From the sequence record PQ850625.1: 46,496 nucleotides of DNA; one strand, written 5' to 3'. The position numbers and the translations under genes are program-made. Of the stretch, positions 2,755 to 9,638 are shown piece after piece (position 1 is the first letter of the stretch; each line of letters begins with the position of its first letter). Source of the DNA: Escherichia phage SandraMuster_Bas78. The notes beneath the pieces were generated by a model, which worked only from the letters and a program-made list of their open reading frames with translations, was not told where the DNA came from and ran no database searches.

Positions 2755-2961
2755 ATGCGCAGCTATGCAGGATTCACACAGGAGGAAAAAGAGCAGGTTT
2801 ATTCACTGGCTCGGGCTGGTGTGCCTGATGATGTGATTTGCCGTCGGTATGACATCGACGAGGATTTCCTGCTGCGCGTTTTGGATGACGTTTTCGTTAA
2901 CCTGCAGGAGAAGCGCGGGTACAAGGGTATCTGCTGCAAGAATGATTTTTTGAGAGGGTGA
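2755..2961 (+). CDS. hypothetical protein
   Basis: Internal ATG of track ORF 2695..2961; preceded by TATAAT-containing intergenic region. Confidence 0.35.
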   Translation: MRSYAGFTQEEKEQVYSLARAGVPDDVICRRYDIDEDFLLRVLDDVFVNLQEKRGYKGICCKNDFLRG

Positions 2962-2963
2962 TT

Positions 2964-3167
2964 ATGAGGGGTTTTGTAAGAGATTTCCTGTTTATTGGCA
3001 TTAAGTACACCATTGCACTGGTGATTGCTGTTCCGCTTATCTGGTTGATTAGATGGGAGGAGCCAAGTATTGATGACATTATAAACTGGCAGGTTTTCAG
3101 ACTTGTTATCGGCTTGTGGATTATTTCAGCTATTGCCGCATGGTGGATTAATCATGTTCAGAAATAA
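2964..3167 (+). CDS. small membrane protein (two predicted TM helices)
   Basis: ATG at 2964 preceded by GAGAGGGTG; two hydrophobic stretches in translation. Confidence 0.4.
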   Translation: MRGFVRDFLFIGIKYTIALVIAVPLIWLIRWEEPSIDDIINWQVFRLVIGLWIISAIAAWWINHVQK

Positions 3168-3928: not shown

Positions 3929-4089
3929 TGGCACTATTCTGGTCGTTCTGGATTCCACTTAATTTTATGTTCTGGTGGGCTATGGCTGCCGGAGTGAATG
4001 AACCAAGCAGGATACATTTCATGGTTGGCTCATTTTTCGCTGTGGTAACTGGTATTGTGCCATGCTTGTTGTATCAATATTTCAAATAG
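3928..4089 (+). CDS. small hydrophobic membrane protein (53 aa)
   Basis: ATG at 3928 overlapping previous stop; translation MALFWSFWIPLNFMFWWAMAAG... strongly hydrophobic. Confidence 0.3.
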   Translation: MALFWSFWIPLNFMFWWAMAAGVNEPSRIHFMVGSFFAVVTGIVPCLLYQYFK

Positions 4090-4099
4090 AGGTGGAGTG

Positions 4100-4348
4100 A
4101 TGATAGGGATAATTCTTACTCTTATCGTTACGGCGTTCTTTGTTTATATCCTGATAAGACATCAGCTTGTTTATATTGCCAGAGGAAGATTCATAAACTA
4201 CTTCTATACAGAAGACCATAATGGATATGCAGCCGGCAAGATATTCCATGAGTCGCTACCAAGCTACGATGAGATGCTGTGGAAATTCTGGGTGTGGCCT
4301 CTGTCAAAATTCTATCCGGCGTACAGAAATCGAAATCGCAATAAGTGA
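4100..4348 (+). CDS. small membrane protein
   Basis: ATG at 4100 preceded by GAGGTGGAGTG; N-terminal TM helix IGIILTLIVTAFFVYILI. Confidence 0.4.
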   Translation: MIGIILTLIVTAFFVYILIRHQLVYIARGRFINYFYTEDHNGYAAGKIFHESLPSYDEMLWKFWVWPLSKFYPAYRNRNRNK

Positions 4349-8079: not shown

Positions 8080-8100
8080 AATTTCTTCCTCACTCATCGT

Positions 8101-8140
8101 TTGATGTAGATACTATGCACCACCACTCAATCTACGTCAA
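8101..8140. promoter_or_regulatory. inverted repeat TTGATGTAGAT ... ATCTACGTCAA in divergent intergenic region
   Basis: Two copies of the recurrent AATCTACRYCA motif in inverted orientation about 18 bp apart, between minus-strand island and lysis cassette. Confidence 0.45.
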
Positions 8141-8184
8141 TAGCCATTGTGATAGAATTAATCATTATTTGAACAGGAGGCAGA

Positions 8185-8463
8185 ATGAAACTATCGCAAC
8201 GCGGCATGGAGGTGTTTGGAATTACCGATGCCGTAGATATATCGCCTTACATCACCACTGAGACAACACAGAATCAGTTTGATGCGCTGACAAGCCTTGC
8301 CACCGACATCGGCATTGACTCGTTCCGCAAATCAACGCTTCTGAAGAAACACAATCTCCGCTGCTTCTCATGTGTCGTCGCGCATTTCATCGTGTGGGGT
8401 GAGAAGACTGGCGACAAAGCAAAACGCAAGGCTGAAAAAGAGGTTTACTGGTATGGCTATTAG
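8185..8463 (+). CDS. lysozyme-like protein lacking the N-terminal catalytic region
   Basis: Strong RBS CAGGAGG; segment TQNQFDALTSLATDIG...FIVWGEKTGDK resembles my recollection of the C-terminal half of T4/P22-type (GH24) lysozymes, but the protein is only 92 aa. Confidence 0.4.
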   Translation: MKLSQRGMEVFGITDAVDISPYITTETTQNQFDALTSLATDIGIDSFRKSTLLKKHNLRCFSCVVAHFIVWGEKTGDKAKRKAEKEVYWYGY

Positions 8464-8917
8464 CAAAAACATGAAGGCGTTTCTGGATATGCTGGCGTAC
8501 AGCGAGGGCACTGATAACGGGCGGCAGAAAACCAATAATCATGGTTATGATGTGATTGTTGGCGGCTCACTGTTTACCGACTATTCCGATCACCCGCGCA
8601 AGCTGATTAGCCTGCCTAAGCTGGGCATCAAATCCACTGCCGCCGGGCGCTATCAGGTGCTGGCTAAATTTTATGATGCGTACAAAAAGCAACTGCGCCT
8701 GCCTGACTTCTCCCCCGCGTCACAGGACGCTATCGCAATGCAACTAATCCGTGAATGCAAAGCCACCGCCGATATTGAGACTGGTCGCATTGCTGATGCT
8801 ATCCATAAATGCCGCTCCCGCTGGGCTTCATTACCGGGCGCTGGCTATGGTCAGCATGAGCAGAAGCTGGATAAGTTGATTCAGGTATACAAAGAGGCTG
8901 GCGGAGCTGTGGCATGA
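8453..8917 (+). CDS. endolysin, lambda R-like lytic transglycosylase
   Basis: Translation from internal ATG 8453 (MAISKNMKAFLDMLAYSEGTDNGRQKTNNHGYDVIVGG...WASLPGAGYGQHE) is near-collinear with phage lambda R endolysin as I recall it. Confidence 0.88.
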   Translation: MAISKNMKAFLDMLAYSEGTDNGRQKTNNHGYDVIVGGSLFTDYSDHPRKLISLPKLGIKSTAAGRYQVLAKFYDAYKKQLRLPDFSPASQDAIAMQLIRECKATADIETGRIADAIHKCRSRWASLPGAGYGQHEQKLDKLIQVYKEAGGAVA

Positions 8918-9153
8918 AAAAGCTAAGCAACTGGCTGCTCGGCGCGTGGATTTCATTCTGCTCACTATTGCAGCTATGGCCTGATGCAATGATGCACGTG
9001 TGGGTAATGATGCCGGACGACCTGAAAGCGGCGCTACCGCCAATCGTGGTCAAAGGTGTAAGCTACTCCATCATGCTGGTTGGTATTCTCGGAAAAATGC
9101 ACGGCATGAGGAAGGAGAACCGGAGGCTGCGCAATGATGTCAATTCTCGCTAA
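8914..9153 (+). CDS. putative holin (two TM segments, charged C-terminus)
   Basis: 79 aa with hydrophobic stretches WLLGAWISFCSLLQLW and VSYSIMLVGILG and basic tail; located between endolysin and spanin genes. Confidence 0.4.
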   Translation: MKKLSNWLLGAWISFCSLLQLWPDAMMHVWVMMPDDLKAALPPIVVKGVSYSIMLVGILGKMHGMRKENRRLRNDVNSR

Positions 9154-9625
9154 ATACTGGCGACCACTGGCAATTATTATAATTGTTGTCTCTGGCGCGT
9201 TGTGGGCGCGTAGCGAAATCATCAGCTACGGCGACCAACGATACGCAGAAGGCAAATCCCAAGCAATCGCCGAACAGAAGGCCGCAGACGAACAAGAGGA
9301 GCAACGACGCAATGCAGAACTGCAAAAGATTCAGGCTGACGCACAGCAAAGGATTGACGCTGCGCGCAATGATGCTGTCAATGCTGCTGCTAAGTCTGGC
9401 AGGTTGCAGCAACAGCTCGCAAATATCCGCAAGCAGCTCGTCGGATATTCCACCGCTGAGTCCATTGGCAATCCAGCCGCAGAAACCGGAGTTTTGCTCT
9501 CCGACGTGCTCAGCAAATCTGTCGAAAGAAATCGACAACTGGCAGATTACGCTGACAGGGCAAGAGAAGCAGGATTAGCGTGTGAGGCGCAGTATAATTC
9601 GCTGCGCAATAAAAAAGCCCCGTAA
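9134..9625 (+). CDS. i-spanin (Rz-like)
   Basis: N-terminal TM helix (LAIIIIVVSGALWA) then long charged coiled-coil region; last gene of lysis cassette; embedded lipoprotein ORF in +1 frame. Confidence 0.6.
   Translation: MMSILAKYWRPLAIIIIVVSGALWARSEIISYGDQRYAEGKSQAIAEQKAADEQEEQRRNAELQKIQADAQQRIDAARNDAVNAAAKSGRLQQQLANIRKQLVGYSTAESIGNPAAETGVLLSDVLSKSVERNRQLADYADRAREAGLACEAQYNSLRNKKAP
9369..9578 (+). CDS. o-spanin (Rz1-like lipoprotein) embedded within the Rz-like gene
   Basis: Alternate frame inside Rz ORF encodes MLSMLLLSLAGCS (signal plus lipobox LAGC) followed by Pro/Ser-rich region. Confidence 0.5.
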   Translation: MMLSMLLLSLAGCSNSSQISASSSSDIPPLSPLAIQPQKPEFCSPTCSANLSKEIDNWQITLTGQEKQD

Positions 9626-9638
9626 TGGGGCTTGTGTT
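9611..9638 (+). terminator. rho-independent terminator after lysis cassette
   Basis: AAAAAAGCCCCGTAATGGGGCTTGTGTTT. Confidence 0.6.

Follow-up and report, generated by a model that had tools for sequence, protein, structure and literature searches.

Why should a phage that encodes an apparently complete lambda R-type endolysin carry, directly ahead of it in the lysis cassette, a 92-amino-acid (aa) gene resembling one half of a different lysozyme? This question is raised by positions 8185-9625 of a 46,496-nucleotide stretch of Escherichia phage SandraMuster_Bas78 (PQ850625.1), the whole of which is called the window below. An original prediction, made from the letters alone, had described an atypical lysis cassette in which a truncated lysozyme, left over from an endolysin replacement and possibly retained for another role, precedes an intact endolysin, a holin candidate and Rz with embedded Rz1. 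The explanation that best accounts for the whole, with a probability of roughly 65 per cent, is a lysis cassette containing a half-lysozyme that is kept by selection and is probably a non-glycosidase accessory protein.

A lysozyme relative without the catalytic subdomain

The 92-aa product of 8185..8463 (referred to as mini-lysozyme) matches Pfam PF00959 with 40.7 bits (gathering cut-off 22.3 bits, E 3.6e-10), and does so only over profile positions 55-114 of 125. In a phmmer search of the PDB it retrieved lysozymes of glycoside hydrolase family 24 (GH24) only, with E values down to 3e-9; in the match to P22 lysozyme, residues 71-126 of that enzyme align to residues 19-74 of mini-lysozyme. The SpmX muramidase domain was among its best structural and NCBIfam matches. 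Judged by the sequence scores, the likeness to GH24 is far beyond chance and not a compositional resemblance, which was the outcome that the original prediction had named as speaking against it. No hydrophobic segment was found in the protein, the maximum Kyte-Doolittle hydropathy over 19 residues (KD19) being 0.94, as expected from the earlier description of a product without transmembrane helix.

Mini-lysozyme was aligned with the intact GH24 enzymes of Klebsiella phage 6991 (locus L004, NC_071156) and Salmonella phage S.Kent 1-2-1 (locus L005, OR850885), and with other full-length GH24 enzymes. Its first ~10 residues (MKLSQRGMEV) match the helix at the N terminus of the intact relatives, MKLSQRG being identical in L005. 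They are followed by a gap of ~50 residues over the EG...D/C...TIGYG region, which contains the catalytic triad. From about residue 26 mini-lysozyme rejoins the full-length sequences, with a second gap of 5 residues close to the C terminus and YGY added as a tail. In structural comparison 88-90 of the 92 residues superpose on full-length GH24 enzymes (146-160 residues), so that mini-lysozyme corresponds to a GH24 enzyme minus one contiguous block. The alignment shows that it arose by an in-frame internal deletion of the N-terminal catalytic subdomain. The likeness to the C-terminal half of GH24 lysozymes was thus correctly predicted, whereas the proposed N-terminal truncation was not borne out, because the first ~10 residues are kept.

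In T4 lysozyme the N-terminal subdomain comprises residues 13-74; its C-terminal counterpart, which folds autonomously, comprises residues 75-164 plus the helix 1-12 (bioRxiv 10.1101/353649). With these boundaries, the natural deletion took out one structural subdomain and spared the whole of the other. Mini-lysozyme does not have the two-lobe structure of GH24 enzymes: the N-terminal beta-sheet subdomain is absent, and the models are all-helical or nearly so. With full-length homologues included in its alignment, AlphaFold (AF2) gave an all-helical model that had a predicted local distance difference test score (pLDDT) of 96. A split lysozyme with its N lobe encoded elsewhere was also considered and rejected, since tblastn of N lobes against the window gave nothing below E 0.05.

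Replacement of the original endolysin

The cassette belongs to a virulent siphophage of the Skatevirus type. Over the 2 kb surrounding it, identity is 98.9% with Escherichia phage SusanneMuster_Bas79 and 89-93% with many Skatevirus-cluster siphophages of Salmonella, Shigella and Escherichia, among them Skate, LPST10, swi2 and seszw; the cassettes of Skate and LPST10 have the same layout as that of the window. No copy of the region was found in the chromosomes of the E. coli genomes searched, which is consistent with a virulent phage. Records of the cluster annotate the five genes as endolysin/lysozyme, endolysin/lysin, holin, i-spanin and o-spanin. The short (92-aa-type) gene is present in 134 GenBank phage records and was labelled endolysin or lysozyme in every record inspected. 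The cassette is therefore typical of a large phage group and already annotated, and the epithet 'atypical' has to be dropped.

More distant relatives point to the origin of the short gene. The cassettes of S.Kent 1-2-1 and phage 6991 are syntenic with that of the window and are preceded by the same leftward genes. They contain a single intact GH24 gene (144-145 aa), followed by a DUF7940 holin gene with the same ATGA overlap and by Rz/Rz1; no R-type gene was found in either cassette. DNA homology between the window and L005 covers 8088-8210, that is, the intergenic region and about nine codons, and sets in again at 8910, four bases ahead of the holin ATG. Over the intergenic region plus the first ~9 codons, identity to the L005 counterpart, which there drives the intact GH24 gene, is 78%. 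It follows from the breakpoints that block 8211-8909, consisting of the body of the mini-lysozyme gene and of R, occupies the place of the GH24 gene body of L005. The C lobe of mini-lysozyme is 45-51% identical to the intact enzymes of L004 and L005 and shares with them an unusual KHN..C..C signature, indicating that it derives from the lysozyme of this phage group itself. The two cysteines (CxxC, C60/C63) were considered as a new acquisition, an idea rejected because they are already present in the intact GH24 enzymes of L004 and L005.

The synteny and the two breakpoints identify mini-lysozyme as the leftover of the group's original GH24 endolysin, with a foreign endolysin gene now lying between it and the holin gene, and in this the replacement originally proposed is upheld. 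Gene order was apparently untouched by the exchange: since L004 and L005 carry the intact GH24 gene, then the holin and then the spanin, the order endolysin-holin-spanin is, by this comparison, ancestral in the phage group and not a by-product of the exchange. The earlier remark that the order is opposite to the S-R order of lambda was correct, but this order is not a sign of disturbance.

In LPST10 an HNH homing endonuclease gene (L003:1638-2117, - strand) lies directly upstream of the cassette, and L044 and L045 likewise carry an HNH gene nearby. At the corresponding site of the window there is none.

Purifying selection on the short gene

Among 37 close loci the pooled ratio of nonsynonymous to synonymous polymorphism (pN/pS) was 0.145 for mini-lysozyme, as compared with 0.047 (R), 0.178 (holin) and 0.339 (Rz), the last value covering sequence that also encodes Rz1. 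In the mini-lysozyme gene the synonymous differences are spread over the open reading frame (ORF), the replacements cluster in residues 2-28, and the core (29-92) is nearly invariant. Homology searches revealed three subtypes of the short protein, A, B and C, with identities down to ~35%, the same architecture and, in all cases, a Y-x-YGY end. Subtype B has 93-96 aa (~54% identity) and subtype C 85-98 aa (~35-45% identity). An alignment of seven members across the subtypes has 25 invariant positions, among them C60, C63 and those of the C-terminal Y-x-YGY. Within subtypes, where synonymous divergence is not saturated, the ratio of nonsynonymous to synonymous divergence (omega) was 0.142 (L095/L096) and 0.078, 0.074 and 0.049 (L101-L103). 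The ORF is open in all of the ~78 loci examined except L099, a contig of 2.5x coverage in which it is fused to R. The gene is not a pseudogene: it is under purifying selection. The proposed retention for another role is supported by these values and by the persistence of the gene before three classes of endolysin (see below).

The fused ORF in L099 (646-1377) joins a subtype B short gene in frame to an R-type endolysin and encodes 243 aa; it is probably an assembly error. It was the only fused ORF seen, and a frameshift fusion of mini-lysozyme to R was therefore rejected as a candidate product. In L086, a poor contig, the R gene is damaged. The short gene is kept in 70 of 70 records of the Skatevirus seszw (the wild type and 69 genome-reduced mutants). 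This says little about dispensability, because the authors of that genome reduction left presumed essential genes untargeted.

One could argue that the ORF does nothing at the protein level and survives only as a translated leader, bearing the promoter, the ribosome-binding site and translational coupling for the endolysin behind it, and as a homology anchor for recombination, being selected for nothing but openness and harmlessness. In favour of this are the overlap with the start of the next gene, which is always present (4-14 nt), and the location of the endolysin Shine-Dalgarno sequence inside the 3' end of the ORF. The intact-GH24 relatives need no such gene, and in P0029 and P0033 an internal stretch is read in another frame, yet the YWYGY end is regained. 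Such a leader, however, should have a pN/pS near 1, in contrast to the 0.05-0.15 observed for the whole ORF, with a nearly invariant core and free synonymous sites. Nor would it account for 25 positions, Y-x-YGY included, staying invariant across subtypes at 35-54% identity even when the downstream gene is different, and a headful or size-limited virulent phage would be expected to lose a dispensable ORF of 279 nt. A function as leader only is thus unlikely, and selection on the protein is the preferred reading.

The metagenomic sequences P0029 and P0033 have the internal stretch in the endolysin frame (…VRRLTTRQNAK…) and the end VYWYGY restored, as a result of either paired sequencing errors or compensated frameshifts. 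A search of 1.8 billion proteins yielded further short GH24-like matches. These were not accepted as proof that such forms recur, since many of the inspected ones resemble fragments or adapter artefacts. Only P0064 (L043:120-425, 101 aa) and P0136 (L046:3001-3333, 110 aa), on unrelated metagenomic contigs, are candidates for an independent loss of the N lobe. In both, an N-terminal helix leads almost directly into the C lobe; P0136 comes after a 1722-aa ORF.

Exchange of the partner enzyme

A gene for an endolysin of glycoside hydrolase family 104 (GH104), the lambda R type, lies next to the short gene in all subtype A loci and in most subtype B loci. The two genes need not diverge together: in L006-L008 the short gene is of subtype B and its product is 54% identical to that of the window, with the adjoining R gene 95-97% identical. 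In L044 and L103 a subtype C short gene precedes a 171-aa GH108+PG_binding_3 endolysin gene, and in L101 and L102 the same subtype precedes GH104. In L095 a subtype B short gene is followed by a complete 183-aa GH24 enzyme with an N-terminal hydrophobic segment resembling a signal-anchor-release (SAR) sequence. The DUF7940 holin and the Rz-like spanin follow in every locus long enough to show them. The gene arrangements thus present the short gene as the constant first gene before an exchangeable enzyme slot, which can be occupied by GH104, GH108+PG_binding_3 or SAR-like GH24. Its constancy next to a changing enzyme speaks against its being the dedicated partner of one endolysin, and also against a reading as debris left by the latest swap.

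Catalytic residues and reported activity

The columns of the GH24 triad (Glu-x8-Asp/Cys-x5-Thr) are gaps in all short forms of the alignment. Mini-lysozyme contains an E9-x8-D18-x5-T24 pattern, which lies outside these columns; the short gene of the Skate GenBank record carries the note 'has Ex5Dx8T motif'. The divergent short forms have K at position 9 and S or R at position 24 (subtype B), and position 15 varies (D/N/I) among close relatives, even inside subtype A. The motif, whether written Ex5Dx8T or E-x8-D-x5-T, was rejected as proof of activity because it is present in the window and not conserved across subtypes. The cleft motif YN(I/V)G of the full-length enzymes (AYNIG in L004 and L005) is replaced in the short forms by T[DSA]IG or A[AS]IG.

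Two sister-phage proteins have been studied. Sui et al. described swi2 as 'harboring two lysins'; their lysin2 is this protein, used as a 62-kDa trigger-factor fusion and ~10 kDa alone (PMC8185280). In the same work EDTA gave no synergy with the lysins, and a conserved-domain search of lysin2 returned no domain (PMC8185280). LysWL59 and LysWL60, the names used by Liu et al. 2019, correspond to the LPST10 locus tags 00059 and 00060. The published claims of activity are indirect and derive from turbidity measurements and counts of colony-forming units (CFU). Neither muropeptide analysis nor catalytic mutants are mentioned in the swi2 paper, the Skate paper or reviews of the LPST10 work.

It could be supposed from these reports that mini-lysozyme is still a muralytic second endolysin, its active site re-formed around, for instance, acid 18 near the end of helix A. 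In its favour, swi2 'lysin2' and LPST10 'LysWL60' are reported as active, the Skate record notes a motif, the window protein contains E9-x8-D18-x5-T24, and all short subtypes keep an acid at position 18. Against this stands the loss of the entire beta-sheet subdomain, to which one wall of the cleft and the triad belong. Moreover, E9 and T24 vary between subtypes, D15 varies within subtype A, and the YN of the cleft is not kept. The effects reported were small (1 log, 0.01<P<0.05) and were obtained with a 52-kDa fusion partner or with chloroform-treated cells; the Skate genome paper names the transglycosylase alone as endolysin. A surviving muralytic activity is on balance quite unlikely. In a somewhat wider form the same idea makes the half-lysozyme a minimal wall-degrading or envelope-disrupting agent with an active site rebuilt on the C-terminal subdomain, e.g. 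at acid 18. This would account for the strong purifying selection as well as for the activity reported for swi2 lysin2 and LPST10 LysWL60, and we give it a slim chance.

Proposed function

A non-enzymatic role in lysis is the best guess. Going by family membership, the DUF7940 holin with two transmembrane domains (TMDs) would permeabilise the inner membrane, the soluble lambda-R-type transglycosylase would then escape and cleave glycan strands, and the embedded Rz/Rz1 spanins would finally disrupt the outer membrane. Mini-lysozyme would be a folded non-glycosidase accessory protein, made in quantity off the same mRNA, and would leave with the endolysin through the holin lesion. Its target would be a component of the host envelope and not a particular endolysin. 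It may act by binding peptidoglycan with the retained half of the cleft, or by a non-enzymatic perturbation of the envelope, and might in this way tune or assist lysis.

Several points weigh against this proposal. We infer the accessory role in lysis only from position, co-transcription and selection, and the relatives with an intact GH24 do without such a gene, so its function is not essential to this type of cassette. The acid at position 18, conserved in all short subtypes, is not conserved in the full-length enzymes, and could be a rebuilt catalytic residue. Both swi2 lysins, lysin2 as trigger-factor fusion, reduced E. coli counts by ~1 log (PMC8185280), and, according to reviews, both LysWL59 and LysWL60 acted on chloroform-treated Gram-negative cells, LysWL59 being the one taken forward. 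If these effects were enzymatic, 'non-catalytic' would be wrong. Finally, when AF2 was given an alignment of short forms only, the same helices were obtained with a pLDDT of 56. The drop shows that the confidence of the model reflects homology and is no independent proof that the short protein folds autonomously.

A role outside lysis was also considered, in which the protein acts in the cytoplasm before holin triggering, e.g. in binding peptidoglycan precursors, in anti-defence or against competitors. Having neither signal sequence nor TMD, mini-lysozyme should stay cytoplasmic until triggering, and it is independent of the type of endolysin; there are precedents for lysozyme folds in non-enzymatic jobs, and SpmX is among its best matches. 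Against this, the gene invariably heads the lysis operon and is coupled to the endolysin. Searches of Pfam, PHROG and NCBIfam (PADLOC was not searched) revealed no likeness to defence or anti-defence families, and positive support is nil. We regard a role outside lysis as very unlikely and retain the accessory protein of lysis as the preferred reading.

Organization and expression signals of the cassette

The cassette consists of the following features, all ORFs lying where the original prediction had placed them:

8098..8184, + strand: divergent intergenic region with expression signals, namely an AGGAGG Shine-Dalgarno sequence at 8175-8180 and an extended -10-like TGATAGAAT at 8150-8158

8185..8463, + strand: mini-lysozyme, 92 aa; GH24 without the N-terminal catalytic subdomain, made up of helix A and the C-terminal subdomain, with Y-x-YGY end

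8453..8917, + strand: GH104 (lambda-R-type) soluble lytic transglycosylase, 154 aa, the working endolysin; overlaps the mini-lysozyme stop by 11 nt

8914..9153, + strand: class II-type holin, DUF7940, 79 aa; ATGA overlap with the endolysin stop

9134..9625, + strand: i-spanin (Rz-like), 163 aa; DUF2514, N-terminal TMD

9312..9578, + strand: o-spanin (Rz1-like) lipoprotein, 88 aa; entirely within Rz in the +1 frame, lipobox LSLAGC

9615..9633, both strands: bidirectional intrinsic terminator with an 8-bp G+C-rich stem and T-runs on each strand, closing the cassette

The gene after the terminator is on the - strand, and the genes flanking the cassette on both sides are on the strand opposite to it, which makes the cassette a self-contained + strand operon. 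In Skate the site matching 9615-9633 carries a terminator annotation. A promoter probably lies within 8098-8184. A consensus scan of this interval found no canonical + strand promoter; by eye, TGATAGAAT, which lies about 27 nt ahead of the first ATG, can be read as an extended -10 element. The AGGAGG stands 4 nt upstream of the mini-lysozyme ATG, in keeping with the strong ribosome-binding site noted originally. The Shine-Dalgarno sequence of the endolysin is located within the 3' end of the mini-lysozyme ORF.

Two ORFs of the window outside the cassette were also noted. The one at 4055-4348 (+ strand) encodes a predicted 97-aa membrane protein with a single strong TMD that belongs to phrog_25285 (unknown function), and the one at 2958-3167 (+ strand) encodes 69 aa with two hydrophobic segments and no PHROG match.

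Endolysin, holin and spanins

The 154-aa endolysin is, as predicted, close to lambda R. Against lambda lysozyme (PDB 3d3d/1am7) it gave E 4e-62 (4.3e-62 to 3d3d) with 102 of 149 aligned residues identical (68%). Its residues 3-153 align to 4-153 of the 3d3d chain, and AYSEGTD stands opposite AWSEGTD, so that the catalytic Glu of SEGTD is conserved. This full-length homology, catalytic Glu included, places the enzyme in GH104, and it matches phrog_90 with E 4e-57. It has no TMD, signal or SAR segment (maximum KD19 0.38); being soluble, it should depend on the holin. The endolysin frame is open for 36 codons upstream of the ATG (8345-8452) in most subtype A loci and is probably non-coding there, given interruptions in L021 and L030. 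For the same reason a longer R isoform starting from GTG 8372 was rejected.

The holin candidate downstream of the endolysin withstood the topology check of 8914..9153, which gave two hydrophobic segments, at residues 4-22 (weak, KD 1.15) and 41-59 (KD 1.73), followed by a basic C-terminal tail, RKENRRLRNDVNSR. It matches Pfam DUF7940 (E 1.1e-9) and phrog_13249 'holin' (E 3.3e-52). Small size, two TMDs, a charged C-terminal tail and location in a lysis cassette are the features of a class II holin, and Skate is annotated accordingly. The swi2 holin had no lytic effect as a trigger-factor fusion, a result that says nothing about native function (PMC8185280).

Rz matches DUF2514 (E 2.1e-31) and phrog_312 (E 8.5e-50) and has a TMD at residues 12-30 (KD 1.97). 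Rz1 matches phrog_11621 (E 1.9e-36), has a signal peptide and the lipobox, and coincides with the O-spanin coding sequence annotated in Skate. An i-spanin with N-terminal TMD and periplasmic coiled-coil-type domain and a lipobox-bearing o-spanin in its +1 frame together form an embedded two-component spanin. Some relatives have a small ORF between the holin and Rz genes, such as L007:3950-4120 (56 aa, no TMD, no PHROG match), which is absent from the window. The same holds for loci in which Rz begins ~810-860 nt, instead of 671 nt, past the stop of the short gene, for example L011, L012, L019 and L038-L041.

Significance

The cassette type itself is common and already annotated. What appears to have gone unrecognised so far is that its 'second endolysin' is half of a lysozyme, maintained by selection while its partner enzymes come and go. 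More than 130 deposited genomes carry the gene; its endolysin or lysozyme labels, and the enzyme engineering built on them, are probably wrong, as the catalytic subdomain is absent. The locus offers a clean natural case of module exchange in a lysis cassette, in which the displaced enzyme would have been cut to an autonomous folding unit and then kept. In this sense the half-lysozyme is the natural counterpart of the C-terminal-subdomain fragment of T4 lysozyme known from folding studies. Its retention through at least three partner endolysins suggests that lysis by Gram-negative phages has an accessory component so far overlooked. Bas77 and Bas79, which grow on E. coli K-12, offer a direct way of testing this.

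Comparison with known systems

The cassettes of S.Kent 1-2-1 and phage 6991 agree with that of the window in genomic position, upstream region, the first ~9 codons, holin, Rz/Rz1 and gene order, and their GH24 enzymes share the KHN...CxxC signature with mini-lysozyme. They differ in having one intact 144-145-aa GH24 enzyme where the window has the N-lobe-deleted 92-aa form and a GH104 gene. With the lambda S-R-Rz/Rz1 cassette the window has in common a close R homologue, Rz1 embedded in Rz, and a soluble endolysin needing a hole-forming holin. Unlike lambda, it has the holin after the endolysin, an unrelated two-TMD DUF7940 holin instead of the three-TMD S105/S107 pair, and an extra first gene.

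Compared with T4 gpe, P22 gp19 and the FAHEc1 endolysin (7m5i), the window protein is without ~50 residues, which comprise the beta-sheet subdomain and the triad; the YN is lost and Y-x-YGY is added. The engineered T4 lysozyme fragment 75-164 + 1-12 retains the same parts of the fold and folds autonomously (10.1101/353649), which makes a stable natural half-lysozyme plausible. In contrast to the T4 fragment, the window protein keeps the native order, with helix A first and joined by a short linker, and is no circular permutation; it has also been shaped by selection.

The lysin2 of swi2 (L033) and the LysWL59/LysWL60 pair of LPST10 (L003/L016) represent the same two genes in sister phages, with short proteins 90-93% identical to that of the window. 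Those studies treat the 92-aa protein as a second active muramidase, and domain loss, selection and partner swapping are not noted in the swi2 paper or in the reviews of the LPST10 work.

The SpmX muramidase domain is, like the window protein, derived from a lysozyme and kept for something besides bulk wall hydrolysis. Alpha-lactalbumin is another lysozyme fold recruited to a non-enzymatic role. SpmX and alpha-lactalbumin keep the complete two-lobe fold, whereas the window protein has lost one whole subdomain.

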